DNA from: a virus
Taxonomy: Duplodnaviria > Heunggongvirae > Uroviricota > Caudoviricetes
DNA: 40,524 nt
Virus record (IMG/VR): IMGVR_UViG_2627853794_000002
Span: 1 to 40,524 of that record
Reading direction: 5' to 3' (one strand)
Shown here: positions 754 to 24,401 of the stretch, one piece after another
Layout: each line of letters opens with the position of its first letter
How positions within the stretch are numbered: position 1 is the stretch's first letter
Notes under the pieces: generated by a model
The model's database searches: none
The model's input: only the letters and a program-made list of their open reading frames with translations
What the model was told of the DNA's origin: nothing
Program-made: the position numbers and the translations under genes

Positions 754-1326
754 CCAATTTAACTGAAACCAGGATGAAGTATATGTATATAAAGTTCACT
801 TTGCCAAACTTCAGTATAAAAAACCACTAAAAATAGGGTGTGATAAAAAATACCGTAACAATAAAGCAAAGGATTATAAATTCCGTTACAGTTACAAATG
901 ATACTCAAGAAACAATTCCTTAGGAAAAACTTATTTACAGCCAATAAGTAAGACACTTATATGATATCAAGTTTTCATAAAACATAACTAGGCTAAATAG
1001 CTGCGCCTAATACCGCTACACTTTTGCCAGCCCATGTTTGCCTCCGGGTATTGACCCCTTCTCTACGCAACTTCAGTTCCCACCACCAACTTTGCGGCAG
1101 CTTTGTAGGATCAATGTCTAAAAGAATAATGGTGACCGATAAGAAAACGACTGAATAACTGCAGATTTTCGCTCAAAACCTTCCTGTCAGATCCATAGCG
1201 AATCAAGTGCTGAATGTCACAGTATCGAACAGAAAACAGTGACGATCTAACCCTTCAAGAATATTCTACGATTGTTCTGTTTAGGAAAAGCAAGGCGGGA
1301 AGTCGGGAGATAAGTCATTGATAAAG

Positions 1327-1388
1327 TGGCGGAGAGAGGGGGATTTGAACCCCCGGTAGAGTTGCCCCTACTCCGGTTTTCGAGACCG
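1327..1388 (-). pseudogene. Truncated tRNA-Ser(CGA)-like gene, 3' ~62 nt only (acceptor 3' strand, T-arm, variable arm, part of anticodon arm)
   Basis: Minus strand reads ...GGTCTCGAAAACCGGAGTAGGGGCAACTCTACCGGGGGTTCAAATCCCCCTCTCTCCGCCA; matches 3' part of E. coli serU as recalled; no D-arm or 5' acceptor strand upstream. Confidence 0.6.
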
Positions 1389-1471: not shown

Positions 1472-2341
<870 letters not shown>

Positions 2342-2398: not shown

Positions 2399-2953
2399 TC
2401 ATTTATCTCCGACCGAAAACTTCTTATACAGTGTCGATATACCAACATCATAGATGATCGCCACCTTCTGGCGAGGAACGCCTGATGCAATTAATCGCCC
2501 GGCCTGCGCCCATTGTTCTGGTGTAAGTTTGGGACGACGTCCACCAATTCGTCCCTGTGCGCGAGCAGCTTCCAGTCCAGCTTTTGTTCGTTCAACAATC
2601 AGTTCACGCTCCATTTCAGCCGGGGCACCCATGACATGAAAAAAGAAACGGCCCATTGGGGTGCTGGTATCAATACTGTCAGTCAGGCTTCGGAAATTCA
2701 CGCCACGCTGACGCAACTCTTCTATCAGCGTAACAAGATGCCGCATACTGCGCCCCAACCTGTCCAGCTTCCAGACAACCAGAGTGTCTCCTGCCGATAG
2801 TGTCCTGAGCAGCTTTTTCAGCCCCGGTCTGTCGGACTTTGTACCGCTTATCTTGTCTTCAAAAATCAGCTCGCATCCTGCACAGTTCAACGCATTACGT
2901 TGTAGATCGGTGTTCTGGTCATTTGTTGATACGCGAACATAGCCAATAAGCAT
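2399..2953 (-). CDS. pin: Serine-recombinase DNA invertase (Pin/Gin/Hin family)
   Basis: MLIGYVRVSTNDQNTDLQRNAL... resolvase catalytic domain plus C-terminal HTH; near-identical to e14 Pin as recalled; start taken at internal ATG 2953. Confidence 0.9.
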   Translation of the reverse strand: MLIGYVRVSTNDQNTDLQRNALNCAGCELIFEDKISGTKSDRPGLKKLLRTLSAGDTLVVWKLDRLGRSMRHLVTLIEELRQRGVNFRSLTDSIDTSTPMGRFFFHVMGAPAEMERELIVERTKAGLEAARAQGRIGGRRPKLTPEQWAQAGRLIASGVPRQKVAIIYDVGISTLYKKFSVGDK

Positions 2954-3021
2954 GATAGCTCCTCCTGACAAAAACAGGAACGATGCCATTTGCGCGCTAT
3001 TTCTGCATTTTCATAAACGTT

Positions 3022-3042
3022 GGTTTGGGAGAGGCGGCAAAA
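3022..3042. repeat. Invertase crossover site, left copy
   Basis: ggtttgggagaggcggcaaaa; inverted copy at 4573-4593 with 1 mismatch; encodes GLGEAAK in both tail-fibre reading frames. Confidence 0.6.
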
Positions 3043-3366
3043 ATGTCTGCCGCTGCACTTGTCATTAACGGTAATACGTTGACAGCAAAAATCCCGGTAG
3101 TTATTAACGGCGTTAACAGGGAGTTTATTATTCAGGCATCTCAGATATCCAGCTCAGCAAGCAATGGTGTTATTACCTTCCCATCCGCATTTCCAAATGC
3201 GTGTATTGCGATTTTTGCGCATGACTTTGCGACAGCGTCTACGGATTTATCGAATGTTCGGTTCTATATGCCAGGAAGAACATCAGCATCATGGACAGGG
3301 CAAAATATGAGTACAGGCAGTGAATCATCACCTGCAACATGGTGTTGGCTGGCAATTGGCTGGTAA
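3022..3366 (+). CDS. Alternative tail-fibre C-terminal cassette (silent in this orientation)
   Basis: ORF 2983-3366 shares GLGEAAK with the expressed fibre at the crossover site; no own start downstream of site; would fuse to fibre N-terminus after inversion. Confidence 0.55.
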   Translation, partial: GLGEAAKMSAAALVINGNTLTAKIPVVINGVNREFIIQASQISSSASNGVITFPSAFPNACIAIFAHDFATASTDLSNVRFYMPGRTSASWTGQNMSTGSESSPATWCWLAIGW

Positions 3367-3786
3367 ATGGAGAAAACAATGAAATATTTTACATCTGCTC
3401 CGATTGCTCTTTATAACTCCGATATATCCTCTTATATACCCGGTGACGCAGTAGAAATCAGTGATGAAGTATATGACGCACTTATTGCTGGTCAGGAGGC
3501 AGGAAAGAATATTACGGCAGACAGTAACGGACTGCCTGTACTGGCAGAACCCGCACAACCAACTCATGATGAATTGGTTGCAGCATCTGAATTAATGAAA
3601 CAGCATCTGATTGATGCTGCTATGGCTTCCATCAGTCTGATTCAGCTGAAATTGCAGGCCGGACGTAAATTGACGCAGGCAGAAACAACCCGGCTTAACG
3701 CTGTGCTGGATTACATTGACGCAGTGACGGCAACAGATACCAGCACCGCGCCGGATGTCATCTGGCCTGAACTGCCGGAGGCGTAG
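3367..3786 (+). CDS. Tail fibre assembly protein (alternate-orientation copy, Tfa family)
   Basis: 139 aa; C-terminal ...APDVIWPELPEA typical of Tfa chaperones; follows silent fibre cassette. Confidence 0.7.
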   Translation: MEKTMKYFTSAPIALYNSDISSYIPGDAVEISDEVYDALIAGQEAGKNITADSNGLPVLAEPAQPTHDELVAASELMKQHLIDAAMASISLIQLKLQAGRKLTQAETTRLNAVLDYIDAVTATDTSTAPDVIWPELPEA

Positions 3787-4210
3787 GCCATTCAATATCT
3801 GGCGCACTGGAGGTATCAACCAGCTCCAGTGCATCCAGATAATCCAGCCACAAATTATATTGCGCCAGTTCCTCACCTTTCAGACGACCAATAGCGGCTT
3901 TACCGGGCCATTGCTTACTGTTCATGTATTCGTTGGCCTGGTTAATTAGTAGCTGTCTTTCTGATTCAGTAATTTCAATAAGCTCTTCATGCGTGGGTGG
4001 AGGAATATCTGCCCACGCAGGCAGCCCATCATCTCCGGCAATACGGATTTTTCCTTGTGGCGGTTCAGCCATAAACTCACTGATAATATTTTGATTTACT
4101 TCCTTAGCGTCTGATAAATCCCATCCCTCTGATTTATATTTATCAATCATATCCACAGGGAAAAAAGCATTATGCCTTGCGCTATAAACATATTCGTTCA
4201 TATAAATCAC
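3758..4210 (-). CDS. Tail fibre assembly protein (expressed-orientation copy, Tfa family)
   Basis: 150 aa; ...APDIEWPTPPAVQAR; immediately downstream of tail fibre gene. Confidence 0.75.
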   Translation of the reverse strand: MIYMNEYVYSARHNAFFPVDMIDKYKSEGWDLSDAKEVNQNIISEFMAEPPQGKIRIAGDDGLPAWADIPPPTHEELIEITESERQLLINQANEYMNSKQWPGKAAIGRLKGEELAQYNLWLDYLDALELVDTSSAPDIEWPTPPAVQAR

Positions 4211-4221
4211 CCTGAATAAAA

Positions 4222-4884
4222 TTACTCACCAACAGCCCACCAACTGTAATTCATCGATACCGTGTCGCTGGTTGATGACGTTCTGTAAGCAGAATTAAAG
4301 CCGGTTAACGTTGGGCCTTCTGCAGTCATCACGAACCCTCGCCCAGCGCCTAAAGGCGCACCGCCATCACCAGAATGAGTAAGCATGGCGCAGTCCGCTT
4401 TTTTGGGGAAAGGGATGCTGAATGTAATTCTCATTGTTTGCGTCGATAATGTCGGCGTAACCGCACCACGACCATATTGCAGGATTTTCCCGTTGGGTAA
4501 TTTCATCCACCCATCACCACTGGCAAAAGAGGCCATGTCCGGTATCTGATTTTCCCCTGTCCCCACATCCCGTTTTGCCGCTTCTCCCAAACCAAGGTTT
4601 TCGAGAGCCGTTTTCACCGTGCCATCCGATTTGATATCGCCAAACGGATTCTTGCGGCTTAACAGCAGCGCACGAAGCGCGGTAAGCAGCTGGTCGTGCC
4701 GCGCCTTCTCAAGACTGGCACCGGATGCCTCAACAACGCTACAAAGTTCTTCCTGCAACATGTCAAAGTAGTCATCATCCAGATCGGTGGCAGGCGTGCC
4801 AGTCTGGGGGTTACCACGGGTAAAACCGTTTTTACCCGCGCCGAACTTATCCTTCTGCGCGGTTTTCGTGTCTATACGATGCAT
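4222..4884 (-). CDS. Tail fibre protein (constant N-terminus outside, variable C-terminus inside the invertible segment)
   Basis: 220 aa; crossover site falls at codons 98-104 (GLGEAAK); followed by Tfa gene. Confidence 0.75.
4573..4593. repeat. Invertase crossover site, right copy (inside tail fibre CDS)
   Basis: ttttgccgcttctcccaaacc = reverse complement of left copy with one mismatch. Confidence 0.6.
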
Positions 4885-4887: not shown

Positions 4888-5472
4888 TTACTCCGGATAT
4901 TTAAAAATTACGTAGGTATGCGACGGGCAGAGTTTGTTAAGCACACACTCGACAACGGTGTCGCCCCAGATACGCAGTGCGGAATCACAGGGATCGCCAC
5001 ATGTCATCCAGGTGGTGTTGGTGGTGGCTGGCATGTTGACCTGCCAGTAATACCGCCATTCCGGCGCATTCACCGCGTCAGTACAGGCCGATGAGCAGGT
5101 GAACGTGCTTTTGTCGTATCGCGTGATGGTGGCATCTGGTCTGCCCAGGGCAGCAAGCTGTGCAAGATAAAAATCCTCGTTGATGCCGCCCGCCAGGTTA
5201 ACCTTCGCATCCAGCCGTTGCTGACGCTGGCGAAGGGTCTGCGTTCCCGCCGGAATACATTCATCCGGCAGACCGCACAGACGCTCCCAGCGGTTTATCA
5301 GTTCAGTGGTGGTGCGCGGATCCAGCTCCCGCATCAGGGCATCCGCACGCTGATGAACACGGGTTAATGACGGTGCCGCACCGGCAATCGCCGGATCGCT
5401 GGCTGACCACGCCGGACCGGGCGGCAACAGTGCCGATAACAGGCGGATGTAATCATCGTTTGTCACGTCCAT
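4888..5472 (-). CDS. Baseplate/tail protein (YmfQ-like, Mu gp48-like)
   Basis: 194 aa; position between baseplate J-like gene and tail fibre; resembles e14 YmfQ as recalled. Confidence 0.55.
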
Positions 5473-6521
5473 GAAATCGTCCCCAGTACCGCCAGTTCGT
5501 TTTTCGCAATGGAGATATTGTCCACCGGTGCAAGCAACTGATGGCTGTATTCCCCGTTCGCACCGGAAATCGCCTCACTGATACGCGATACCTTCAGTTC
5601 TCCCTGCGGATAACCATCACGCAGCAGGAACGAACGCAACTCCGCGGTAATGGCAGCCCGTATTTCCGGTGTGTCCGGCGTCACGCGGATATGAAAATCC
5701 ACCGTATGTGCCACCGGCCTGAATACATACAAATCAGAGCCTGCCACCGGGGCCAGTGGCCCGATATGTTGTCTTGCTGCCGTTTCCGTTGATTCTTCCG
5801 GAATGGGATTAATCAGGTCACTGCTGGCAATCATCACACCGACAGTTCCCGTTCCCATCCAGTGACGGTATGTCCATGCGCGGGTAATGCCGGGCACTTC
5901 TTTAGCCCAGACGACATAGTCCCCGTCAGCCCCGCCCTGAGGCGTCCAGTAATACCGCTCAATGACGCGGGCGCGCCACGTTTCCAGCTCTTCAGTATCA
6001 AATCCACCTGTCAGGGTATCTGCCACGCCGGAAGACGGCAGACCATTAACCGGCGTGACCAGGATTAATGACGTACCGTCGTCAGCGTTACCGACCGCGC
6101 CTGCACTTGAGCAGGCGATCGGCACGCGCAGGACACCACCGGAGCTGGTTGCATCGGCAGTTGCCGTGTACTGAACCAGGTCATCGCGCTGAATAACACT
6201 CCCGGCGGTCACCTTCAGGCCATCGCTGACACCTTCCCAGCGCATATACCCGCTGGCAGCCGTGGCCCCCTTGCGCGGACACCGTTTCATCGCAGCATGT
6301 CGCGCCAGCCAGGACGCATCGCACAGGTCAGGCAGCATGTTCATTGCCAGATAATCGATGTACCCGTAAACCGTATGCAGCGCCGCCGCATACACCTTTG
6401 CCCGCACGTCTTCATCCATGCGCCGGAGCGTGTCGCTGACGTCCAGCCTGGCGAATAAATCGTTACGGAGCATACTGATATTTTCTGCCAGCGTCGGGCG
6501 CTGAAATTCACTGTCCGCCAT
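5463..6521 (-). CDS. Baseplate J-like protein (Mu gp47-like)
   Basis: 352 aa; synteny within Mu-like baseplate module. Confidence 0.65.
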
Positions 6522-6936
6522 GCGTTATCGCACTCCACAGATCATCAAAAGAAATCATTACCGGTCCGTCACGACGCCAGAGGGTGATACTGTTACCCAG
6601 TTCATTAATCCCGGTGCGGCGGATATCCAGATCAATACGGGACACCACGCCGTCATCAATCATCCATTGCAGGCATTCGCGGATATACCCCCTTACCGTC
6701 TGCACCAGCTGATTGGTCAATTTGCTGCGCTGAAGCAGCCACAGTCGGGAGCCGTAACGGTCATTCTGTACCGCAGGCCAGGTATCCCCCCACCATCCCA
6801 TCGGGACGTCGGCGTTGTCATCAGGCTCCGCCCGCCGCCAGGTAAACAGGGAAATCACCACAGCGCGGGTCAGCGGATCCAGCGGTGCGCTGGCGCAGGT
6901 GCGTTTACCGTTCACCGTCAGCCACAGTTCCATCAT
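6508..6936 (-). CDS. Baseplate protein (Mu gp46-like)
   Basis: 142 aa; overlapping coupled ORF in baseplate operon. Confidence 0.5.
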   Translation of the reverse strand: MMELWLTVNGKRTCASAPLDPLTRAVVISLFTWRRAEPDDNADVPMGWWGDTWPAVQNDRYGSRLWLLQRSKLTNQLVQTVRGYIRECLQWMIDDGVVSRIDLDIRRTGINELGNSITLWRRDGPVMISFDDLWSAITHGGQ

Positions 6937-7481
6937 GCCTCCATCGCTTTATCAGGTTTGTCGGTGTTACTGCCCTGACCGTTCTCTCTGTGACGATGCC
7001 CGTTATAGGCAAGCCGCATCGCTGACATGGTGGTGCCGCCGGAGTCGCACAGGTCTTTCACCTGTCCTGTCACTTCCAGGTCCATTTCAAAACGTGCTTT
7101 AGGTGAATTGCGAAACGTGATCGTTTTACCTGCACCGTCCACCACGATCCCCTCCCGGGTCAGCGTCACGGACTGCCCCTGATCGTCATAGACAGCCACC
7201 TCACCCGTCTGCAGCCCTTTCAGGCGGTAGCGCCGGTCCGACACCGTAACAACCACCGCATGAGAACGGTCACCATCCGGAAACAACACCACCGCTTCCG
7301 CACCGCTGTTTGCCCTTGCGGTAAAACCGTAGGGTTCAAGATGTTCAACCCCGGCTTTGGGTTCACCGGCAATCAGGGACACATCCACGGTCTGACATTT
7401 CGTGGCGGCACTGATGCTTTTCACCACCGCCCGCCCAATCAGGCCGAAGAGTTGTCGCTGTATGGTTTCAATCGCCTTCAT
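6933..7481 (-). CDS. Baseplate assembly/spike protein (gpV / Mu gp45-like)
   Basis: 182 aa; synteny; translationally coupled to neighbours. Confidence 0.5.
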   Translation of the reverse strand: MKAIETIQRQLFGLIGRAVVKSISAATKCQTVDVSLIAGEPKAGVEHLEPYGFTARANSGAEAVVLFPDGDRSHAVVVTVSDRRYRLKGLQTGEVAVYDDQGQSVTLTREGIVVDGAGKTITFRNSPKARFEMDLEVTGQVKDLCDSGGTTMSAMRLAYNGHRHRENGQGSNTDKPDKAMEA

Positions 7482-8560
7482 CAGAACGGGTCCTCCTGTA
7501 CTCTGGCCTTTTTCTTTTTCCGCGCGCCGGGGGCTTCGGGTTCAGGCAGATAAGCATCAGGTGGGCCGACACGGATTTCCGTCAGGGTGCCGTTCTGGTC
7601 CTGAGTAAACGTGACTTCCGAGACAAGCAGTTCGGTATTGTCGAAACCACAGACCGGATCGAAGACAATCACCCGCTGGTTGGGCTGCCACAGCGTACCG
7701 TTACCCTGTCGCCAGCCCTGCACCACATAGGTGGTTTCATCCGTCCGCGCCGCCCGTTGTCGGGCTTCAAAGTCAGCACGCGCAATACAGCCTGCCCCCG
7801 TAGCCTGCCCTGTCTGCCTGATATACATCGGACGGTAACGGGCAATAAATGCGTCCTCTGTGCGGGCCCGCAGCGCGGTGGTGGTGGCCTCACCGAAATC
7901 ATCGTCGTTTCCGGCACGCTGCCCCGCCACCTGGTAAACTGAAAACCGCTCCCGGATACTCTTCTCCGTATCGCAGGAAAGGATGTTTTCCCCGAGTACC
8001 AGCGCGGTATGTGCCCGCGTTGAGCCAATACCGCCAATCACCAGCCTGCCGTGCGGGTCGTCGTAAGCCAGCGCCTGCTGCTGACCGAGTATTTTGTTGA
8101 TCACCTCGATCACCGTTTCACCGTGATCAGGCTGGACATCAGGAATAACACCCGACGGCGCACCACTGTTCACCACCTCAATGCCGAAAGGCGCAGCAAG
8201 CGCCTGCGCAATCTGTACCAGCGATCGTCCGTTAAACTGTGTCGGTTCGGCTGCACAGTCAATCAGGTCAGCGGTCAGACTACGTCCGGCAATACCGGTG
8301 CTGACCGAACGGGCATCGTAACGAACGGGCGTCGCCTCCACCCAGCCGGTGATCACCAGCTCATCACCAATCAGCACCTCCACTTTTGAACCGTTTTTAA
8401 TGCGCGGCTGAAGCGTGGTGATACCCTCATCACCCGGCCACTGGCGGGTGATCTCCACACTGAAATCCCGCGCCAGCCGTTCAATACCGGCACCGATGCG
8501 CACCGATGTCCAGCCATTCCACTCCCGGCCATTTACCCGTAGCGTGACATTGTCGTTCAT
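7481..8560 (-). CDS. Baseplate hub protein (Mu P / gp44-like)
   Basis: 359 aa; synteny after DNA circulation-like gene. Confidence 0.55.
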   Translation of the reverse strand: MNDNVTLRVNGREWNGWTSVRIGAGIERLARDFSVEITRQWPGDEGITTLQPRIKNGSKVEVLIGDELVITGWVEATPVRYDARSVSTGIAGRSLTADLIDCAAEPTQFNGRSLVQIAQALAAPFGIEVVNSGAPSGVIPDVQPDHGETVIEVINKILGQQQALAYDDPHGRLVIGGIGSTRAHTALVLGENILSCDTEKSIRERFSVYQVAGQRAGNDDDFGEATTTALRARTEDAFIARYRPMYIRQTGQATGAGCIARADFEARQRAARTDETTYVVQGWRQGNGTLWQPNQRVIVFDPVCGFDNTELLVSEVTFTQDQNGTLTEIRVGPPDAYLPEPEAPGARKKKKARVQEDPF

Positions 8561-9927
8561 TGCACTGGCACCTTCAGAGGGATCACCGGCACAAAGCCGG
8601 GATGCGTAATGGCATTACGCCGAATAATGTCCGCGTCACGCGCCGCGTTATCAAACCAGGTCGCCGCCAGCACCAGCGCGGGTAAAACCTCATCCGGTGT
8701 GCGCTGAATGATCCGTGCAGACTGTTCAAGGCGCGTGTTGATATCCGCATTCAGATCTGCTTTCACCCGGCGCAGCGCCAGAAACAGCGCATCACTGGTT
8801 GTACGGGACAACTCCTTATCAATTGCCGTATTCAGTGTGTCGCGAATGTCAGTCAGTTCTTCCCACGTCGGCAGGTCAACTGTGTTTTTCACCGCCGGTG
8901 CATTGTTCAGTGCCGGATGCGTGACGGAAGGCCAGCCGGTGCTCTGCGCAGCTGTTGTTGCCTGCCCCACTGCGGCATTCTGCATCACCGCGGAAGTTGT
9001 TGGCGCAGGCAATCGGGTGACGGCATACGCCGCTTCGCTGATTGCGGTCGTACGAAGGGTGCTGGCAACCACGTTACGCTGCTGCGTCGCCGTAGCGGTG
9101 GTTTTACTGTCCGTTTTCCAGACGCCGCGCGGTTGCAGATCGCTGCCGAGGCTGACACCGGAAAGCGTTTTGATCATGGTGACCAGGTCGCTGGCGTTAC
9201 CATAAAGGCGTTTCCCGGTACGCCACATTTTCTGCACCTGCTCAACGAAATTTTTGCCTGACGATGGCGGCGGCAGAAGTACCGAGATATCCCCCTGCAA
9301 CAGCCTGGCGGCATCCGATACGGCAGAATCCACCACTTTCATCGCATCAGAAACATACCCAAGCATTATGCTGGCATTACCGATAACGTCGTTCTGCACG
9401 AAATCCGCCACGCCATCGATACTGAAACCTCTGAAGCTGTCACTGATGCAGTCATCCAGTGCAGAACAGGATGACATCAGCGTCTGCGCCGTCGCCGCAC
9501 CTGAAGTGGGGTAAGAGAGTTCTCCCGCTTCGACAAACTTCAGGTCAAAGCGGACAATACGCCCTTCACTCTTCGATGTGCTGACCCGAACTTCTCCGTC
9601 AACACAGACTTTCAGCTCACCGTATGTCGGATGGACAAGCGTGCCGGGACCGGGTTTATTCAGCGCGTCAATCAGGCGATCGCGCTGGTCAAAGCAGTCA
9701 TCTCCCACCACATAAGCCGTGATGGACGGGCGGAAAGTGATTTTCCCCAGGTCTTCGGTATAGGGTTTGTCGCGGTTCGGGTATTCGTGCGTTTCCACAC
9801 GACGACCGGTTCCCGTACTTTCTTCTTCAACCTTAAAAGGCACACCGCGAAATGACGCGTCCTGAAGTCTGTCTTTCCACGTCATATAAACTCCGTACAT
9901 AAAAAATCCCACCGGAGTGGGACTCAT
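8557..9927 (-). CDS. DNA circulation protein-like tail protein (Mu N / gp43-like)
   Basis: 456 aa; follows tape measure gene as in Mu-like tail modules. Confidence 0.55.
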   Translation of the reverse strand: MSPTPVGFFMYGVYMTWKDRLQDASFRGVPFKVEEESTGTGRRVETHEYPNRDKPYTEDLGKITFRPSITAYVVGDDCFDQRDRLIDALNKPGPGTLVHPTYGELKVCVDGEVRVSTSKSEGRIVRFDLKFVEAGELSYPTSGAATAQTLMSSCSALDDCISDSFRGFSIDGVADFVQNDVIGNASIMLGYVSDAMKVVDSAVSDAARLLQGDISVLLPPPSSGKNFVEQVQKMWRTGKRLYGNASDLVTMIKTLSGVSLGSDLQPRGVWKTDSKTTATATQQRNVVASTLRTTAISEAAYAVTRLPAPTTSAVMQNAAVGQATTAAQSTGWPSVTHPALNNAPAVKNTVDLPTWEELTDIRDTLNTAIDKELSRTTSDALFLALRRVKADLNADINTRLEQSARIIQRTPDEVLPALVLAATWFDNAARDADIIRRNAITHPGFVPVIPLKVPVQ

Positions 9928-9945
9928 TAACAGATTAATTTTTCA

Positions 9946-11781
9946 TTACCTGCCAAAGCGCGTATAGCCAACATCATGGCTGACATCAAAACCGCTGGAT
10001 CGCGTTTCCATAACCCGCATACCCGGAGGCGAATTCACAAAAGAGACCTTGATCTCACCATCAACTTTTGGCGCAGAAGCTTTGTTAATCATGAAGGGAT
10101 TCGGGCCTGTGGCACCGGAGGCGTTGTTTGACTGAGCCAGATCTACCGCCGGATAAGGTGTGTATCCCCGTGCCGGTATTCCCGTCCCATAAGCATCATA
10201 AGCACCCGCGCCCCACTGCGCAGAGTTAATGGCATCGACCGTGTCACCGGAACTGTCGGTAAACCACTCAATAATTGGCTTCAGCTTATCCCACATATCC
10301 TGAAACCACTTAACAACCGGTCCCCAGTTATTGATCACCATCTCCAGCGGCGACCAGGCAAAAACCTTCTTCAGAAGTTCCCAGCCAGCCTCAAAATAAG
10401 GACCAATGGTTTCCCAGAGTTTCTTAAAATAAGGTCCGACAACATCCCAGTTAGTGATAATTAATCCCGCAGCCAGGGCTATCGCCGTCGCAATCATGCC
10501 AATCGGCGTCATCGACATGATCCTGCTGACAATACTGATGGCACCGCCCACGCCCATCAATCCCAGCTTCAGAATCGCAAGACCGGCAGCAAGCCCGACG
10601 ACGCCGCGAATAACCCGGGGATTTTCATCCGCAAACTTCGTGAATTTCTCCCCCAACTCCCCCAGCCACTGCGTGATATTTTTGGCGTCACCAGAAAATG
10701 CGCCGCCAATAGCTGCAAGACCGTTAGTTGCGGTCCCCGTCATTGCCTCCCACAGGTTGGACAGCGTACCAAGCTGAGCCTGAACACGTTTATTCAGGCT
10801 GGCCTGTTTATTCATCTTCTGCTGGATCTGATCGTAGCCATCCTTTCCTTTATCGATTAGTGCATTGACCACCTGAAGGGTTTCGGCATCATCACCAAAT
10901 ATTGCCTTAAGTACGCCTGTTCGCTTAACGTCGGTCAGTTTTCGCAGCTTTGCCAGTTGCCTGAACATGTTATCAAGACCGCCAAAACTCCCTTTGCCGT
11001 CAGTAAAATCGAGCTGTACCCCGAGTTTCTGGCGGGCCATGATTTTATTGACGTCCCTGATTTTCTTAACGCTTAATCCGGACTGGATAACTTTTCGCAG
11101 GGCGTTACCTGCCGACTCCCCGTTCATCCCCATCTGATCCATCATGACGCTGATGGGGGCAAGGCTCTGTGCAGCCTGAAGACCGTCCTTGTTCACCATC
11201 TTCAGAACAGAACTGGTTTTAGTGAAGAAGGACAACATGTTGGTATCGTCAACGCCCAGATAAAACGCCTTCTGGATAGTGTCGAACAGCCCCATCATGT
11301 CTTCTGACGCCGTTCCGGTAGCATCCTGCATCTTTGCAGCAAACTCAGCAGCCGCTTCCGGTGTTTTTTTCAGTTGTACCGCAAGATAAGCTGTCGCTTT
11401 ACCCACACCACCCAGAATGTTTTCTGCCGGGATCCCCTGACGCACCAGCATCTGCATCATGTTCTGGAAATCAGCCGTTGTACCGGGTAGCTGGTTACCC
11501 AGGCCAATAGCCAGTTTATTGATGTCCTGAAAGCTCTTTCCAACCTCGCCGTTCGCATCCATCATGGCGACTTTCAGCCCGGTAGCGGCGTTTTCCTGAT
11601 CGGCATAAGATTTCAGGGAAAGCGTCAGCCCCGCTGCCAGTCCTCCACCAAGCGCCAGCCCACCCTGTGACGCTTCTTCCGCCTGGCGTTTAAATCCCCG
11701 GATTTTCTTTTGCATTTTCGACAGCGCGGGAGAAAGCCTGTCGACACCGGTGATCAACGCCTTAAGCTCAAATTCAGCCAT
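9946..11781 (-). CDS. Tail tape measure protein
   Basis: 611 aa; Ala/Gly-rich helical protein with hydrophobic segment near C-terminus; immediately downstream of chaperone frameshift pair. Confidence 0.8.
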   Translation of the reverse strand: MAEFELKALITGVDRLSPALSKMQKKIRGFKRQAEEASQGGLALGGGLAAGLTLSLKSYADQENAATGLKVAMMDANGEVGKSFQDINKLAIGLGNQLPGTTADFQNMMQMLVRQGIPAENILGGVGKATAYLAVQLKKTPEAAAEFAAKMQDATGTASEDMMGLFDTIQKAFYLGVDDTNMLSFFTKTSSVLKMVNKDGLQAAQSLAPISVMMDQMGMNGESAGNALRKVIQSGLSVKKIRDVNKIMARQKLGVQLDFTDGKGSFGGLDNMFRQLAKLRKLTDVKRTGVLKAIFGDDAETLQVVNALIDKGKDGYDQIQQKMNKQASLNKRVQAQLGTLSNLWEAMTGTATNGLAAIGGAFSGDAKNITQWLGELGEKFTKFADENPRVIRGVVGLAAGLAILKLGLMGVGGAISIVSRIMSMTPIGMIATAIALAAGLIITNWDVVGPYFKKLWETIGPYFEAGWELLKKVFAWSPLEMVINNWGPVVKWFQDMWDKLKPIIEWFTDSSGDTVDAINSAQWGAGAYDAYGTGIPARGYTPYPAVDLAQSNNASGATGPNPFMINKASAPKVDGEIKVSFVNSPPGMRVMETRSSGFDVSHDVGYTRFGR

Positions 11782-11956
11782 GTGTGCGTTTCTCCTGCTC
11801 TATCCTGTTTGCCTGACTGACCAGCAAGGGAATTTCACTGATCGGCATATTCAGCAATTCGAAGGGATTAATGCGCCAGTAGCTGGCGCAGTCAAAGAAG
11901 CGATCAGTGAGGTATTCAGCCGTCAGGCCTGGAGGAAAAAACCAGCCACAAGCCAC
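11774..11956 (-). CDS. -1 frame extension of tail assembly chaperone (frameshift product)
   Basis: Overlaps 3' end of 11923-12192 ORF in -1 frame; slippery heptamer at overlap; ends 7 nt before tape measure start. Confidence 0.45.
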   Translation of the reverse strand: MACGWFFPPGLTAEYLTDRFFDCASYWRINPFELLNMPISEIPLLVSQANRIEQEKRTHG

Positions 11957-12192
11957 GCCGCTGCATTCAGGTCTGCCGGAGACATCTGGTCGACAGAGCT
12001 TTGCGGCACTTTCGCCAGCCGCACAATGTATTTCGACACCACATGCGCCAGAAGTCTGACGGACTCATCCTGATTCATCTGGTAGGGATACCCCAGCTCG
12101 CGGACATCTTTCCCGGTGGGCTCATCAAACTCCAGTACGGAGAGTGTCTCGCCATGAGCGGTAATCGGTTTCTTTAACTCAAGCTCTTTCAT
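11923..12192 (-). CDS. Tail assembly chaperone (P2 gpE / Mu gp41-like)
   Basis: 89 aa ORF between tail tube and tape measure genes. Confidence 0.6.
   Translation of the reverse strand: MKELELKKPITAHGETLSVLEFDEPTGKDVRELGYPYQMNQDESVRLLAHVVSKYIVRLAKVPQSSVDQMSPADLNAAAWLVAGFFLQA
11935..11941 (-). other. Candidate -1 programmed ribosomal frameshift site T_TTT_TTC
   Basis: Minus-strand heptamer in zero frame (ggT TTT TTC) within the 34-nt overlap of the two chaperone ORFs. Confidence 0.45.
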
Positions 12193-12548
12193 TACTGGTA
12201 ATCCCCTTCTTCACCGTGGAACTCAAGATCGACCGTGCCTTCTTCGGCATTATGGTTCGCTTCGCCGTGCAGCCAGGCAGACGACAGTACATAGACCTGA
12301 CCGTTCGCCAGCTCGGCAGTGATGGTCATCTCATCAGACGAGGTGATTTTGCTCACCGGAAAATTCTTCGGCACCTTGAAGGTCCCTTTGACATAAGGCG
12401 CACGGTGAGTTTCCTTGCGGTCCACTGAACCGTCCAGGCCGATGATGTCATCATTGACCGTCCTGTTCATGGGCACCTCAATGCCGCCGGTCAGCGATAG
12501 CTGCTGACCGTCAATTTTGAAATAACAGGTTCCCCCGATACGGGCCAT
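12192..12548 (-). CDS. Tail tube protein (Mu M / gp40-like)
   Basis: 118 aa; directly downstream of sheath gene. Confidence 0.7.
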   Translation of the reverse strand: MARIGGTCYFKIDGQQLSLTGGIEVPMNRTVNDDIIGLDGSVDRKETHRAPYVKGTFKVPKNFPVSKITSSDEMTITAELANGQVYVLSSAWLHGEANHNAEEGTVDLEFHGEEGDYQ

Positions 12549-14044
12549 TATGCGGACTCCTCTGAATACTGAAGACGGAACTGGTTAACCACGGCAAAGA
12601 CACGCAACTGGTTAACATAGTCAGGCGGGAACAGCGTGTTCAGGCGGTTCGGATCGCTGGCATCACGCTCCACAACCAGGTACTGCTTAAACAGTGCGTA
12701 GTTTTCCACGATCCCCGCACGCTCAAGCTGACGGTAGGTTGCCAGCAGTTCCCCTTTGATCACCGCCGGGGTGACAATCGCCTGACCGGGACCAAAGCGG
12801 GTACCGTCACTGGCAAGCTTGTGACGCCCGTACTTACTGGTAATGACGGATTTCAGTTTGCGCAGTACATACGCGCTGGTATGCAGAGTCTCGCTGTCGA
12901 GGTAGCTGTTATCCGCAACCCCGTAAGCGTTTTTCCTGTACGTGGTGACATCACGCTGAATGCGCAGTACCCCGCTTTCGACATACGCCGTTGCCACGCC
13001 ATGAGACAGCAGGGTCTGTTGTTCGGTCATCGTGAACCGTTTCCCCTTCGGCGCAGGCAGCATACCCACCAGCTCACCGGTCTGCGTGGGACGTGCCGGA
13101 TCGTTGCGAATAAACACCGCTGCGCGGGCGGTACGGCTTGCCGCCAGTTCGTCGGCAGGCGTCTGGGTCTCTTTTTCGTACCCCGCCAGGGTAATGTGCT
13201 GCTGGTTAAACTGGTCACCTGCGGTCACCAGTTCTGACAGCGTGCCGATCTTTGCCGTATACACATGACCATACAGCTGACGCGCATAGCTCCAGCGACC
13301 GCTGGTATCGTTCATCTCGGTCACCAGCGTGTTAACGGAGGCCGTGTCGTTGAACGGCAGGCCGATATAATCAAACGGCTCATCCGCCATTGCAGCCACC
13401 GCGCCGGTGAGAACCGGAGCACCCGTTCCGGCGGTACCCGTCGCCACGGCAATCTGTACGCCCGCTGGCAGCACTTCGCCCCCACCAAAGCCGTAGTAAT
13501 TGAGGCTGACAGGAATTTCATTCCCGCAAAGCCCCTTATGACGCGCGGTCAGTGTGACCACGCCTGCCGAAGATGAAGCCGTAAACGGCAGGGCCGGAAC
13601 GGCATTGATGGCATCCTGGATACTGCTGGCAATCGTCGTGACGTTATCGCCGTTGGTCACCGGAGCCTGCACGCGGGTACGTCCCACATAGACATTCACC
13701 GTGCCGGTTTCGGTTGCCGCCCCGGTCACCGTCAGCGTAACCGTTGCCGCCGCGCCCGTGGATTCAGGAACGGCAATCACATACAGCTCACCAAACGGGT
13801 CGGTCTGGCGATAAGCCTCGACCATACGCGCCAGCTGACTTCCCGCACCACAAATCTGGCGTGCATAGTCTGCCGACGGCATCAGTACCAGACTGTTGGC
13901 AACAATCTCTGCACCGTTATTGGCATGACCAATCAGCAGCGATGCTCCGCTGTCCTGTGCAGTATTCGCCGCCTGGTTATCCATTTCCGCATAAAACAAC
14001 GGAACCAGCGTATTCGACGGAATGGTGTTAAAGCTTATCGTCAT
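12548..14044 (-). CDS. Contractile tail sheath protein (Mu L / gp39-like)
   Basis: 498 aa; sheath-tube-chaperone-tape measure gene order. Confidence 0.8.
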   Translation of the reverse strand: MTISFNTIPSNTLVPLFYAEMDNQAANTAQDSGASLLIGHANNGAEIVANSLVLMPSADYARQICGAGSQLARMVEAYRQTDPFGELYVIAVPESTGAAATVTLTVTGAATETGTVNVYVGRTRVQAPVTNGDNVTTIASSIQDAINAVPALPFTASSSAGVVTLTARHKGLCGNEIPVSLNYYGFGGGEVLPAGVQIAVATGTAGTGAPVLTGAVAAMADEPFDYIGLPFNDTASVNTLVTEMNDTSGRWSYARQLYGHVYTAKIGTLSELVTAGDQFNQQHITLAGYEKETQTPADELAASRTARAAVFIRNDPARPTQTGELVGMLPAPKGKRFTMTEQQTLLSHGVATAYVESGVLRIQRDVTTYRKNAYGVADNSYLDSETLHTSAYVLRKLKSVITSKYGRHKLASDGTRFGPGQAIVTPAVIKGELLATYRQLERAGIVENYALFKQYLVVERDASDPNRLNTLFPPDYVNQLRVFAVVNQFRLQYSEESA

Positions 14045-14198
14045 CGGTATTCACCTTTTTATTCACGCGCCGGATATCACCCGCTGCTTCACGGCGCAGC
14101 CAGTAGTTGTTCTCGTCAACATTTCGCCCTTCGGCGGGCAAAAGGTCGCCGCGGGCAGGGTCAGGAACTGACCGCCCTTTAACAGGTTTCACAAACAT
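14028..14198 (-). CDS. Small hypothetical protein preceding sheath gene (Mu gp38-like position)
   Basis: 56-codon ORF MFVKPVKGRSVPD... not in ORF track (below length cutoff); overlaps sheath start. Confidence 0.3.
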   Translation of the reverse strand: MFVKPVKGRSVPDPARGDLLPAEGRNVDENNYWLRREAAGDIRRVNKKVNTDDDKL

Positions 14199-14206
14199 GA
14201 AGATTC

Positions 14207-14767
14207 TCAGGAAGGAAGGGTTATTTCGGTGTGATGTTCGATATCGCCGTCAGGCCCGTTACCGGGATCGAGATAATCAACATCAATCGCCAGCGTTTGC
14301 AGTTCATCCAGACTGTTCAGATCATCCTGCTGGCGGGTATCGTCTTCGGTCAGCTCGCTGATGACCGAAAAATCGAACTGATAAATCAGCTCATGACGAT
14401 TCAGATCCAGCAGCGTGCCGCCGTCATAGGTAATCGGGTTACCGCACGCCTCCGGGTTCCAGCCCAGCAGAGCCTTAAAGAGCATCTGCCGGACATCGTC
14501 CACCACATCATACGAGGCAAACTGACCGCGCTCATCACGCCCGTTACTCAGTATGACAACCACGGAGAAACCCTCTTTCAGCTCCTGCCAGTAGTCGGTC
14601 TGGCTTTTGTTTTCTCCCGGAGAATCATCACCCGGTACAACATATGCTGCCGGGAGTTTCAGCTTTCCGACCTCCGGCAGATTTTTGAACTGGGCCGCGC
14701 CTGCAACCCGGTTTTCAAAATACGGACAGCGGGCACGCAGTGCAGCAATAACAGGCATCAGTTTCAT
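14207..14767 (-). CDS. Tail-associated protein (tail completion/terminator candidate)
   Basis: 186 aa; position between head-tail joining genes and sheath. Confidence 0.4.
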   Translation of the reverse strand: MKLMPVIAALRARCPYFENRVAGAAQFKNLPEVGKLKLPAAYVVPGDDSPGENKSQTDYWQELKEGFSVVVILSNGRDERGQFASYDVVDDVRQMLFKALLGWNPEACGNPITYDGGTLLDLNRHELIYQFDFSVISELTEDDTRQQDDLNSLDELQTLAIDVDYLDPGNGPDGDIEHHTEITLPS

Positions 14768-15270
14768 CTGTGTCGTCGCTCCGGCTTCAGTGATTTACGC
14801 AATTCCCGCGCCAGAAAATAGCGTGTCCAGCTGCGGTTCTTTTCAAGAGTTTCCACCATGAAGTTATTACGTGGAGCCAGTCGCCAGCCGCTGCCACCGG
14901 ATGCACCACGATGATGGCTGCGACGACGCTTTGCCCCGCGCCTCACGCCATAGAACAAAAAAGCCGGATAAAAATCACCGGTGATACGGCGGTTTCCCTC
15001 TCCATTACGCTGGTTAGGGGCTATACGTGCCATAAAACCAGGGCGATGTTTACTGGCTCTGGGTACCATGTAACCAATCGAACGAGCCAGGCGTCCGGTC
15101 TGATAACCGGGGTTTTCACCCGGTGCCGACCGCGCACGGCGCATCACCAGCCGACGGGCATCACGCATATGACGCTGACCAATCGTGACAAACGCCCGCC
15201 GGACACGGGCGCGGTTAAAGCGCATCTCCGCGGGCTGCTGAAAATCAACGTGCAAAAAGGAAGTCGTCAT
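14764..15270 (-). CDS. Virion morphogenesis / head-tail joining protein
   Basis: 168 aa basic protein; synteny. Confidence 0.4.
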   Translation of the reverse strand: MTTSFLHVDFQQPAEMRFNRARVRRAFVTIGQRHMRDARRLVMRRARSAPGENPGYQTGRLARSIGYMVPRASKHRPGFMARIAPNQRNGEGNRRITGDFYPAFLFYGVRRGAKRRRSHHRGASGGSGWRLAPRNNFMVETLEKNRSWTRYFLARELRKSLKPERRHR

Positions 15271-15655
15271 TGTTGCCTCCGTGACTCTGCCTACATTCGC
15301 CCAGCTCCGTACACTCCAGCAGCAGAAAGCGCCGCGCCCCGTTCAGATCGCGCTGACGTTTCACCCGGTACACACTGTCACCGCAGACCACCTCATAATC
15401 AGCGGTGATCCCCCGGCGGTAACGAATGGTGATGTAATGGGTGATGGCGTCCCCGGTCTGCGCGGTTTCCTGCCAGGTGGTGGCACTGGTCTGGACAACC
15501 TTCGCCCATGTCCGGAACGCAACCGGGTATTGAGGCTCCACGCCAAAGTTATCCGCGGGCATATCCACCCGCAGGCGGATCAGGACGCGTTTATTCAGTT
15601 CACCGGGGTCCGGCAGAATGTAGGTTGCGCTGGTCTGCGCCTGACGAATTTTCAT
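15245..15655 (-). CDS. Head-tail adaptor / head closure protein
   Basis: 136 aa; synteny downstream of connector-like gene. Confidence 0.4.
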   Translation of the reverse strand: MKIRQAQTSATYILPDPGELNKRVLIRLRVDMPADNFGVEPQYPVAFRTWAKVVQTSATTWQETAQTGDAITHYITIRYRRGITADYEVVCGDSVYRVKRQRDLNGARRFLLLECTELGECRQSHGGNNDDFLFAR

Positions 15656-15975
15656 TGCGGGAAATACCTGTACGGGCCGACAAGCCAGTTAAAGCTCATT
15701 GGCAACTCCATTTTCTCAACGTCTGTAACCGACGAGCGATTTTCGTAAAAATGGCTGATAAGCATCAGCATCCCCAGACGAATATCATCCGGCAGGTGCA
15801 GCCCGTCCGGATCGCTGTCCGGAATGGATTCATCCGGTGCATAGAGCTTCCGGTTCAGATACGTTTCCGTCCGCTTTTGCGCCGCACAGGCCAGCAGTTG
15901 CAGATGGCGGTCATCAGCATCGAAATCCTCATCCAGCCGGAGTTGGGCTTTAATCTCTTCCATTGTCAGAAGCAT
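15652..15975 (-). CDS. Head-tail connector protein (gp6-like)
   Basis: 107 aa; MLLTMEEIKAQLRLDEDF... typical of gp6-like connector family; follows capsid gene. Confidence 0.5.
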   Translation of the reverse strand: MLLTMEEIKAQLRLDEDFDADDRHLQLLACAAQKRTETYLNRKLYAPDESIPDSDPDGLHLPDDIRLGMLMLISHFYENRSSVTDVEKMELPMSFNWLVGPYRYFPQ

Positions 15976-15977
15976 AC

Positions 15978-16178
15978 TCAGCTCTCTTTACTGGTCGTGG
16001 CTTTTTTCTCTTTTGCCGCTTTACTGCTTTTTGCACTGGTTCCGCGCTCAGCTAACCCGGCCTGAAGTGCAATCTCCTGCACCCGGGCAGGAAGCGCCCC
16101 GTCGTCATACTCACCGGCCCGAATGACTTCAACACGCATACCGTCCGGTGACCATTTCAGATCTTGTTTCAGGATCAT
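15978..16178 (-). CDS. Small hypothetical head-region protein
   Basis: 66 aa, Lys/Ala-rich tail; between capsid and connector genes. Confidence 0.3.
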   Translation of the reverse strand: MILKQDLKWSPDGMRVEVIRAGEYDDGALPARVQEIALQAGLAERGTSAKSSKAAKEKKATTSKES

Positions 16179-16227
16179 GATTCTTCACCCGTCAGAACAG
16201 GGGGCGCGGTTCCGCGCCCCTGAATGA

Positions 16228-17433: not shown

Positions 17434-17447
17434 CGTATTTCTCCTGA

Positions 17448-18134
17448 TTAGAAGTTTAGATTTTTCAGTGCATTCAGTGCAGAGCCCACATCCTCAGCGT
17501 CGCGCAGGGACAGTGCGCCATAGCCCCCGGCCATGAATGCTTTGGCCTGGGTACGGGAGAGTCCGACATCACGCAGGACTCTTTCGATTTTTTTCTGTTC
17601 GGGGATTTCCCCGCGGGCCAGTGCGTTCTTGACGTCGCTGATCCGCGCCTCGTCGTTAGACGGGAACGTCACCAGGCTGACTTCCCAGAGGTCGATTTCT
17701 TTCAGCAGAAAGGCTTCTTTGCTCCGGTCGTATTCCCAGTCTTTCAGGACGTACCCAATAGAAAGGCCGGTTAACGAACCGGCCTTCATGTGTGCATGTG
17801 CGCGTTTTGCGAGGGGATCATCATCAATAAGCAACCGTCCCCTGACGTAAAGCCCGACATCGTCTTCCTTCATTTCGGTGTAAACACCGATGGGTTCATC
17901 CATGCGGTGCTGCCAGAGCAGCGCAGGTAACGCTTTTCTGTCACTCCACGCCCGCAGGGAAGCAGCAAATGCCCCGGACATCACCACATCATCGTGGCTG
18001 TCCTTTACACCAAAGACGGAGCCATACCCTTCAAACTCACCGGAGTCACTGACAGATTTCAGACTCAGCGGTACATCAAGACGTTGTTTCGTCTGCATTG
18101 GCGTTATCCTTCTGCTTACCGGCTTTACTGCCAT
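17448..18134 (-). CDS. Prohead protease (HK97 family)
   Basis: 228 aa; between portal and capsid; true start may be internal Met near 18098. Confidence 0.7.
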   Translation of the reverse strand: MAVKPVSRRITPMQTKQRLDVPLSLKSVSDSGEFEGYGSVFGVKDSHDDVVMSGAFAASLRAWSDRKALPALLWQHRMDEPIGVYTEMKEDDVGLYVRGRLLIDDDPLAKRAHAHMKAGSLTGLSIGYVLKDWEYDRSKEAFLLKEIDLWEVSLVTFPSNDEARISDVKNALARGEIPEQKKIERVLRDVGLSRTQAKAFMAGGYGALSLRDAEDVGSALNALKNLNF

Positions 18135-19317: not shown

Positions 19318-19499
19318 TATTTACCTCCGCCGACAGACGGCTGTGTTCGGTCGAGATATCGCGCCACCAGCCACGACCAGAACAGGCACAGCACCCCGGC
19401 AACAACAAAACCCGCCGGGGGATAAATCAGCCAGGCACCATACGCCAGCAAAAGCGCACCCAGCACGCCCACCAGTGGCGCGAGAATTATCAGAAACAT
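19317..19499 (-). CDS. Small hydrophobic protein (two predicted TM helices)
   Basis: 60 aa [45 protein letters not shown]...; between terminase large subunit and portal. Confidence 0.3.
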
Positions 19500-19510
19500 A
19501 ATGACCTCGG

Positions 19511-24167: not shown

Positions 24168-24242
<75 letters not shown>

Positions 24243-24245
24243 ATA

Positions 24246-24321
<76 letters not shown>

Positions 24322-24323
24322 AC

Positions 24324-24400: not shown

Positions 24401-24401
24401 C

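Follow-up and report, generated by a model that had tools for sequence, protein, structure and literature searches.

A P-segment-type tail-fibre inversion locus with a Pin L111P allele in an SfI-like Escherichia coli prophage

The window analysed here, a stretch of 40,524 nucleotides of tailed-phage DNA, carries a DNA invertase gene next to two sets of tail-fibre and chaperone coding sequences that face each other. Along the window pin is followed by the silent fibre tip, tfa', tfa, the expressed fibre gene and ymfQ; the features of the locus are as follows.

2399..2953, minus strand: pin, DNA invertase, 184 aa (Pfam Resolvase, E 2e-51, and HTH_7), with a probable ATG start at 2953
2621..2623, minus strand: codon 111 of pin, CCG (Pro) here and CTG (Leu) in relatives, in oligomerisation helix E; equivalent to Hin Leu112
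2869..2932, minus strand: predicted recombinational (Fis) enhancer, 64 bp, nucleotides 22-85 of pin, assigned from position and homology
3008..3033, no strand assigned: left, pin-proximal 26-bp recombination site, TTTTCATAAACG-TT-GGTTTGGGAGAG, crossover dinucleotide at 3020-3021
3020..4595, no strand assigned: invertible segment, 1576 bp, delimited by in-silico flipping and by a natural flipped counterpart (L008 compared with L015)
3022..3366, plus strand: silent alternative fibre C-terminus, cassette B (Pfam Gp53-like_C, E 5e-11)
3367..3786, plus strand: tfa', tail-fibre assembly chaperone of cassette B, 139 aa (Pfam Caudo_TAP, E 3.5e-23; phrog_188)
3758..4201, minus strand: tfa, tail-fibre assembly chaperone of cassette A, 147 aa, ATG at 4201 (Pfam Caudo_TAP, E 2e-31; phrog_188, E 3e-63)
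4222..4884, minus strand: expressed tail fibre, 220 aa (Gp53-like_C at residues 128-219; phrog_1396 tail fibre)
4222-4593, minus strand: variable cassette A, within the expressed fibre gene
4594-4884, minus strand: constant N-terminal part of the fibre, codons 1-97, within the expressed fibre gene
4582..4607, no strand assigned: right 26-bp recombination site, within the fibre gene, TTCTCCCAAACC-AA-GGTTTTCGAGAG, crossover dinucleotide at 4594-4595
4888..5472, minus strand: ymfQ, a Mu gp48-like baseplate gene upstream of the fibre (Pfam Phage_Mu_Gp48, E 1e-26)

The backbone around these genes is that of an SfI/SfII-like E. coli prophage; it shares 97.9% identity with the structural module of SfI, a Shigella phage that has been isolated and is functional. 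The prophage looks complete; a search of the first 3 kb for an attachment repeat returned no copy of the thrW end of at least 12 nt. The fibre gene starts 3 nt past the stop codon of ymfQ/gp48 and therefore belongs to the late tail operon, with ymfQ as the source of fibre transcription.

The N-terminal part of the fibre is nearly invariant relative to E. coli K-12, with 99 of residues 1-101 identical to StfP. In the PDB the fibre sequence is matched only weakly, by the phage short tail fibre 9zd7 gp92 (E 4e-4). An initial reading of this DNA without database searches (the sequence-only reading) had the fibre gene cross the right-hand repeat at codons 98-104, and GLGEAAK does occupy residues 98-104 of the 220 aa. 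That reading also described an ORF leaving the left repeat and ending at 3366, with its own Tfa gene behind it; the plus-strand frame 3022-3366 indeed continues GLGEAAK and is followed by the Caudo_TAP gene at 3367-3786. Flipping 3020-4595 in silico produces an intact 211-aa fibre in which cassette B supplies residues 98-211, and this flipped fibre is also found in nature, in agreement with the proposal that inversion would exchange the C-terminus of the fibre together with its chaperone. The two chaperone genes are convergent, overlap by 29 bp and encode proteins 36% identical to each other; gene calls in relatives likewise give 147 aa for the tfa of cassette A. The divergence of the two fibre tips (approximately 26% identity over 68 aa) suggests that they confer different host ranges.

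The best inverted repeat recovered by a repeat search of the first 9 kb has arms of 28 nt at 3015-3042 and 4573-4600 that are 93% complementary, with two mismatches (3019/4596 and 3033/4582); 26 matches out of 28 were reached in none of 20 shuffles of the 9-kb region. The 21-bp repeats with one mismatch reported earlier at 3022-3042 and 4573-4593 are present inside it, but the true repeat runs 7 nt further outward. The recombination site has its centre in this extension (3020-21 / 4594-95), which puts the point of crossover immediately beyond the 21-bp arms. Both sites have the canonical 12-2-12 layout of serine-invertase sites, in inverted orientation and with matching cores, TT and AA. The left site is identical to its K-12 e14 counterpart (L005 5606-5631) at 25 of 26 positions, and the right site to the one in K-12 stfP (L005 3779-3804) at all 26.

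Codon mapping places the crossover dinucleotide of the right site at positions 2-3 of the Leu97 codon, CTT. The exact site, which the sequence-only reading had left to be mapped, can thus be assigned to the Leu97 codon and not to the GLGEAAK codons. That the crossover repeats lie within coding sequence holds for the right site, which is wholly inside the expressed gene, but only in part for the left, the outer half of which is in the 68-bp spacer between pin and the segment. Similarly, GLGEAAK is encoded in both fibre versions, but across the family the cassettes share only GLGE, corresponding to the inner half-site. This half-site, GGTTTGGGAGAA, is read as Gly-Leu-Gly-Glu, and therefore each cassette must start with GLGE; the site imposes these four residues only, and AAK is homology between the two cassettes. 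We also looked for extra pix-like sites of the kind expected for multiple inversion, as in Min or the shufflon, and found none beyond the two sites and one chance-level match at 15104.

The genome of the window represents one assembled orientation of the segment, but both orientations, which the sequence-only reading proposed to look for, occur among its relatives, including in combination with this cassette pair. The predicted flipped 211-aa fibre is identical letter for letter to WP_407242012.1 and is encoded on 4-6 contigs of public assemblies, and a 127-aa ORF specific to the orientation of the window (state A) is found on 5 contigs. Two loci with the same cassettes, L015 and L008, differ by 1 SNP in 8450 bp and by an exact inversion, and are otherwise equal. 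The breakpoints of this inversion fall inside the site core and are bounded to TTGGTTTGGGAGA (3020-3032 / 4583-4595 in the window), which supports a crossover at the Leu97 codon; the polymorphism at 3033/4582 moves with the segment. The 8846-bp loci of the clonal isolates CH458 and CH423 are identical but for an exact inversion whose ends lie within TTGGTTTGGGAGAA, and in O157:H7 genomes both orientations are seen at the same locus. In the orthologous K-12 segment both states coexist within clonal cultures (PMC4272514), and that segment is inverted by PinE, PinQ and PinR (PMC12529663).

The 184-aa Pin protein, for which a longer listed ORF begins at 2989, is 78% identical to Mu Gin (PDB 3UJ3, E 8e-93) and identical to K-12 PinE at 171 of 184 positions (93%). 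It carries Ser9 at the position of the nucleophile, as well as Arg42. Together with the Resolvase and HTH_7 domains and the near-perfect agreement of both sites with those of e14, these similarities bear out the initial identification of a Pin/Gin/Cin-type invertible tail fibre. Hin K47, K/R48, K/R51, Q151, R154 and L155 have been reported to be unique to Fis-dependent invertases (PMC3798978), and the Fis-dependent-invertase residues are all present in Pin, as Lys46, Lys47, Arg50, Gln150, Arg153 and Leu154.

The enhancer of hin is 65 bp long, has a Fis site at both ends and is located about 100 bp from a hix site (PMC3798978). An enhancer inside pin had been named as something to be mapped, and a candidate does exist in the 5' end of the gene. 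The predicted 64-bp stretch is identical to K-12 pinE at 62 positions and to Mu gin at 50; both of its ends carry a G-N13-C core (GTATCAACAAATGAC and GTGCAGGATGCGAGC), with core centres 49 bp apart and the nearer core approximately 96 bp from the centre of the left site. Scanning pin for the G-N13-C pattern around an A/T-rich centre gives several candidates and is not discriminating by itself, so that the assignment of 2869-2932 as an enhancer bound by Fis is a prediction from position and homology.

Comparison with known systems indicates that this one is the already described e14 P segment, not merely a Gin/Pin/Cin-like system, and that the Mu G segment is a relative. The e14 P segment was reportedly treated by Plasterk and van de Putte in 1985 and by Mehta et al. 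in 2004. It was re-examined in 2014 and 2025 (PMC4272514; PMC12529663). Gene order and orientation are the same in K-12 (pinE, stfE/tfaE, tfaP/stfP(ycfK), ymfQ), and beyond the similarity of sites (26/26 and 25/26), Pin (93%) and constant fibre part (99/101), the overlap of the convergent tfa genes is 29 bp in either prophage, and a defence gene lies just past pin in both. The differences concern size (1576 bp here, 1797 bp in K-12), cargo past pin (PD-T4-3, of GIY-YIG type, here; McrA in K-12), the L111P replacement in Pin, and the cassettes. The two variable tips of this locus are Gp53-like_C domains; cassette B shares only 31% identity with the StfP tip, and neither K-12 cassette gives a significant match to cassette A. 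Furthermore, the SfI-like prophage described here seems complete and is integrated next to thrW/proA; e14, a remnant of 15 kb, sits at icd.

With the Mu G segment (S/U, S'/U' and Gin), and also with the P1 C segment (Cin), the locus shares a constant N-terminus joined at a 26-bp 12-2-12 site. As in Mu, there are two alternative tips with a chaperone each, and an adjacent invertase gene runs in the same direction as the fibre, with 78% identity between Pin and Gin. The half-sites have TTNTCNNAAACC in common with those of Mu gix, and the annotated boundaries of the G segment fall on the central dinucleotide. However, the core reads AA/TT in this locus and GA/TC in Mu, the fibre has 220 aa compared to 504 aa, the segment measures 1.6 kb compared to 3 kb, and the host is a lambdoid/SfI-type temperate phage, not a transposable one. 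The locus works like the Mu G segment but is not a member of it, because fibre, core dinucleotide and phage backbone all differ.

The same two cassettes are also found in P2-like E. coli prophages (strain A38, locus L002; phage pro483), at 91.5% DNA identity over 84% of the query, together with the same left site and a Pin-like invertase 89% identical to the one described here. In those prophages the cassettes are attached to a P2 gpH-type fibre shaft and not to a short StfP-type anchor, which shows that cassettes plus pin form a module that is passed from one phage family to another. Hin/hix, responsible for flagellar phase variation in Salmonella, has a recombinase of the same subfamily and 26-bp sites. 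Its Fis enhancer occupies the 5' end of hin, roughly 100 bp from a site (PMC3798978), and the one predicted in pin has a comparable position. Hin flips a promoter, whereas here a coding segment is swapped.

Taken together, the locus is very probably the P-segment inversion switch of an E. coli prophage of the e14/SfI family, with the following anatomy and expected mechanism. The tail-fibre gene is transcribed as part of the late baseplate operon (ymfQ, then fibre); its constant anchor comprises codons 1-97, and from the Leu97 codon on it enters the 1576-bp invertible segment. This segment holds two divergent receptor-binding tips, tail to tail, each with its own Tfa. Following the Hin/Gin paradigm, Pin dimers would bind the inverted 26-bp sites at 3008-3033 and 4582-4607 and synapse with the help of Fis bound to the enhancer in the 5' end of pin. 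Pin would then cut the central TT/AA with a 2-bp stagger, and rotation of one subunit pair followed by religation would exchange cassette A (220-aa fibre and 147-aa Tfa) for cassette B (211-aa fibre and 139-aa Tfa). By analogy with the better known invertases, dependence on Fis and this cleavage chemistry are anticipated, and one lysogen population would presumably release phage with two host ranges.

The Pin allele itself deserves attention. Position 111 is Leu in Gin and in 147 of the 147 other family proteins fetched, and Pro here. Hin Leu112, the equivalent residue, belongs to the Phe105/Met109/Leu112 'ratchet' for subunit rotation (PMC4513852), and since Phe104 and Met108 are kept but Leu111 is replaced, the rotation interface of helix E is not intact in Pin. 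Because the change affects an invariant position whose Hin equivalent is in the rotation interface, activity of this Pin may be reduced, with inversion perhaps relying on other invertases of the same cell. The replacement is the only unusual detail of an otherwise ordinary switch; it bears on the sequence-only reading, which had counted an inactive pin among the observations that would speak against inversion, and it concerns the activity of this allele, not the family membership of the locus.

One could therefore argue that the switch is locked or orphaned here, i.e. that L111P cripples Pin and the segment stays in state A for good or is flipped only in trans, by the invertase of a P2-like prophage or by PinQ/PinR. 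Apart from the residue itself, this is consistent with the presence of the exact Pin allele on a single contig and with the common decay of pin in relatives, where it is cut down to 42 aa (L010, L016, L017), is frameshifted (L012) or is absent (L011). Action in trans is established for the invertase family (PMC12529663), and the median number of matching places is 2 among E. coli genomes in which the query region is matched at all. On the other hand, L015 and L008, separated by 1 SNP and the inversion, both carry Pin-P111, meaning that the segment flipped in a P111 background; P111 is common to backbones 1.4% apart (the window and L015), meaning that the allele persisted; and in Hin and Gin many substitutions within helix E hyperactivate the enzyme instead of inactivating it (PMC4513852). 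A Pin sequence combining P111 and P180 had no match in the collection searched; the L015/L008 allele differs from it elsewhere. We consider a locked or orphaned switch tentative and on balance unlikely. The stricter version, in which L111P disables Pin and the fibre switch of an intact prophage is run only by invertases of other prophages in the cell, is slightly more doubtful; if it were true, one phage would determine the host range of another, and the locus would be a natural intact-phage counterpart of the action of PinQ/PinR on e14 reported in 2025.

A different role for the silent cassette was also considered. The ORF that includes it had been called promoterless, and a promoter scan places no promoter-like site upstream of it on the plus strand and yields as many such sites as chance would give; nevertheless, there is an in-frame ATG at 2983, from which a 127-aa ORF with the leader MPFARYFCIFINV can be read. 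Translated from this ATG, the cassette could act in host defence: as a free receptor-binding domain it would mask a receptor on the cell surface and so keep other phages from adsorbing. Such a role has been claimed for StfE2 of K-12 e14, a chimera that lowers adsorption of T2 (PMC12529663). The ATG yields an ORF of 127 aa in state A and of 136 aa in state B, which are called as genes on 5 and more than 340 contigs, respectively, and the leader is conserved with K-12 (MPFACYFFIFINV). However, besides the lack of promoter-like sites above chance, AGGAA is just 2 nt from the ATG, and the outer half-site and the presumed promoter of pin both overlap the leader, which would account for its conservation without a coding role. 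Since the prophage looks complete and is close to the infectious SfI, the classical host-range role is sufficient, and we regard a defensive function as improbable here. Host-defence and host-range roles are not mutually exclusive.

Finally, that the repeat is a by-product of shared cassette ancestry and that the rearrangement results from RecA-dependent homologous recombination is scarcely credible: the innermost 9 bp of each arm, GCGGCAAAA, which encode AAK, do represent cassette homology outside the site, but inversion between CH458 and CH423 is exact with a repeat of just 15 bp, the exchange between L015 and L008 is confined to 13 nt (site centre and inner half-site) with the inner 9-10 bp of homology excluded, and canonical 12-2-12 sites adjoin a cognate invertase, so that homologous inversion was rejected on the breakpoint evidence.

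The P-segment switch is already known, and in its sites, its recombinase and the constant part of its fibre the locus is essentially e14; it is a textbook serine-invertase host-range switch and adds little beyond correct annotation. An annotation should treat the 127-aa ORF from 2983 and the 220-aa fibre as two states of a single gene system and accept the segment in an assembly in either orientation. The Pin L111P allele, present in lineages that flipped, offers a cheap test case for whether position 111 of helix E is essential, and also for whether the invertases of co-resident prophages cross-operate fibre switches.

A sequence-only reading had proposed a Pin-invertible tail-fibre segment at 3022-4593, and its reading as an invertible fibre segment is supported here, with corrections concerning the crossover codon (Leu97), the peptide imposed by the site (GLGE) and an upstream start codon (ATG 2983). 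This switch has been described before, as the P segment of the K-12 element e14; here it carries another cassette pair, uncommon in this backbone, and it is nothing new in kind. It is also a close functional relative of the G segment of phage Mu. ORF and domain searches recovered the fibre, both chaperones, the silent frame and the recombinase as that reading had described them, and the features of the segment are as follows, with the sites compared to those of the K-12 e14 P segment (locus L005).

2399-2953, minus strand: pin, a gene with Resolvase and HTH_7 domain matches
3008-3033: left recombination site, TTTTCATAAACG-TT-GGTTTGGGAGAG, 25/26 identical to the e14 site
Left repeat to 3366, plus strand: open frame of the silent tip, with a Gp53-like_C domain match
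3367-3786, plus strand: second Caudo_TAP gene, convergent with the first chaperone gene
3758-4201, minus strand: chaperone gene with a Caudo_TAP domain match
4222-4884, minus strand: tail fibre of 220 aa; the baseplate gene just upstream, Mu gp48/YmfQ-like, reaches its stop 3 nt before the fibre start
4582-4607: right recombination site, TTCTCCCAAACC-AA-GGTTTTCGAGAG, 26/26 identical to the e14 site

The gp48/YmfQ-like gene is itself preceded by homologues of gp47, gp46, gp45 and gp44. The two tfa genes overlap by 29 bp (3758-3786), so that this stretch specifies the C-terminus of one chaperone on one strand and that of the other on the complementary strand, and tfaP and tfaE of K-12 e14 show the same convergent overlap. 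The two fibre tips share about 26% identity across 68 aa and the two chaperones 36%, a divergence consistent with different receptor specificities. The silent ORF, previously considered promoterless, is indeed an open frame, but an in-frame ATG lies upstream at 2983, adding a 13-residue leader (MPFARYFCIFINV, encoded at 2983-3021) that is conserved relative to its K-12 counterpart (MPFACYFFIFINV). The ORF from this ATG is routinely annotated as a gene, whichever state the segment is in. The K-12 equivalent, StfE2, has been claimed to be made and to block T2 adsorption (PMC12529663, 2025).

Within the first 9 kb of the window, the top-scoring inverted repeat pairs 3015-3042 with 4573-4600. Its 28-nt arms are 93% complementary, the two mismatched pairs being 3019/4596 and 3033/4582, and 20 shuffled versions of these 9 kb gave no repeat reaching 26/28 matches. 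The 21-bp repeat originally noticed (3022-3042 and 4573-4593) is present but too short, representing the inner three quarters of this one. Both arms belong to 26-bp sites with the 12-2-12 layout found in hix, gix, cix and pix. The pattern search that found them also recovered both gix sites of phage Mu. The window has no extra pix-like sites except one chance-level match. In the Mu RefSeq record the "G-segment boundary" features coincide with the central dinucleotide of the gix sites, from which the crossover in the window is predicted at 3020-21 and 4594-95, on the second and third bases of CTT, the codon for Leu97. The crossover repeats had been placed within GLGEAAK coding sequence; this peptide does correspond to fibre residues 98-104, but the predicted crossover is one codon upstream, just outside the 3022-4593 span. 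GLGEAAK is shared by both fibre versions in the window, as claimed, but the site imposes GLGE alone: the inner half-site GGTTTGGGAGAA translates as Gly-Leu-Gly-Glu, and GLGE is the sole part common to both cassettes in K-12 and strain CH458 (GLGEGAK vs GLGEGSAL), so the shared AAK of the window reflects cassette homology outside the site.

The proposed swap of fibre C-terminus and chaperone is borne out by in-silico inversion of 3020-4595, which yields an intact 211-aa fibre identical to WP_407242012.1. This flipped fibre occurs on 4-6 contigs of a public collection, and a 127-aa ORF specific to the window orientation on 5. The same cassette pair is found in the window's state in L015 and flipped in L008, two related loci that differ across 8450 bp by one SNP and an exact inversion. 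Their breakpoints are bounded to window positions 3020-3032 and 4583-4595 (TTGGTTTGGGAGA); the polymorphism at 3033/4582 travels with the segment while that at 3019/4596 remains where it is, which places the exchange within the core and inner half-site of the site and outside the 9-10 bp of homology further inwards. Independently of this pair, the 8846-bp loci of hospital isolates CH458 and CH423 are identical apart from an exact inversion ending within TTGGTTTGGGAGAA; in these isolates the repeat is just 15 bp. Among complete E. coli genomes, the window sequence and the flipped sequence each matched O157:H7 genomes at one and the same locus, but the two sets of genomes differed, indicating that both states exist in this lineage. 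The orthologous K-12 segment occurs in both states side by side in clonal cultures (PMC4272514), and is inverted by PinE, PinQ and PinR alike, at TTGGTTTGGGAGAAGG (PMC12529663).

Pin, 184 aa counted from the ATG at 2953, shares 93% identity with K-12 PinE and 78% with Mu Gin (PDB 3UJ3; E 8e-93), and Ser9 is present. The residues reported to be conserved solely in invertases that depend on Fis and an enhancer (Hin K47, K/R48, K/R51, Q151, R154 and L155; PMC3798978) all have their equivalents in Pin (K46, K47, R50, Q150, R153 and L154). Nucleotides 22-85 of pin (window 2869-2932) form a 64-bp stretch, 62/64 identical to K-12 pinE, with a G-N13-C core at either end and about 96 bp between the left site and the nearer core centre. 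Judged by position and homology, this is a putative recombinational enhancer that fits the description of the hin enhancer, a 65-bp element with Fis sites at both ends that lies roughly 100 bp away from a hix site (PMC3798978).

The structural module (5000-19500) is 97.9% identical to that of Shigella phage SfI and close to those of SfII, SfIV and SfV, and K-12 e14 is a remnant that shares this tail, fibre and pin module. Both cassettes of the window also occur on P2-like prophages (locus L002; phage pro483), together with an invertase that is Pin-like (89% identical). This indicates that the pin-plus-cassette module has been exchanged between phage families. In L002 (E. coli A38, 5884-8130), the fibre-shaft gene upstream of the cassette pair and invertase is annotated as truncated. 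At a query coverage of at least 80%, only one genome per orientation was found among 5426 complete E. coli genomes, and both appear to carry the cassettes on P2-like elements rather than the window's backbone, as inspected directly for L002 and judged from coverage and annotation for H61. The window's cassette pair is thus uncommon in this phage backbone.

Directly beyond pin is a gene for a 257-aa GIY-YIG (LEM-3-like) protein (1568-2341, plus strand), which aligns over its full length with PD-T4-3, an anti-phage model of PADLOC (E 2e-140). The same slot holds McrA in K-12 e14, L012 and phage vB_EcoM-689R6, GmrSD in L010, L016 and L017, EcoRII and Dcm besides the GIY-YIG gene in L007, DUF4145 in L011 and an AAA_15/SMC-like ATPase in L013. 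The slot resembles a variable site for defence cargo at the prophage end. A tRNA gene 3' fragment ending in CCA (1320-1385, minus strand), uncalled by ARAGORN and resembling tRNA-Ser with a CGA anticodon loop, is probably a scar left by another integrative element. The right end of the window carries an integrase, tRNA-Thr(CGT) and a 417-aa ORF; the tRNA-Thr(CGT) end (39081-39156) has no repeat of at least 12 nt within the first 3 kb of the window. Four clustered tRNA genes (Gly-TCC, Thr-TGT, Lys-TTT and Met-CAT) lie inside the prophage at 24168-24477 on the minus strand.

Decay of pin is frequent among relatives: the gene is cut to 42 aa, adjoining the GmrSD gene, in L010, L016 and L017 (8258-8395), frameshifted in L012 (8258-8813) and absent from L011. 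These relatives express the same 220-aa fibre as the window; having lost pin, they presumably keep the fibre segment in a locked state, except where it is flipped in trans. In the window, pin codon 111 (2621-2623) is CCG (Pro), at a position occupied by Leu in K-12 PinE, three other E. coli Pins, Mu Gin and 147 of 147 other Pin-family proteins fetched. This position, in helix E, is equivalent to Hin Leu112, which together with Phe105 and Met109 is the proposed "ratchet" of helix E rotation (PMC4513852), and Pro111 could plausibly impair Pin. The exact window allele (L111P with P180S) was found on a single contig, an E. coli chromosome of 5.10 Mb, and P111 is also present in the Pin of L015 and L008. 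Since these two loci differ by inversion, the segment has flipped in a P111 background, either by Pin-P111 itself or by a co-resident invertase in trans. The Pin L111P allele is the sole feature of this system that might repay experiment.
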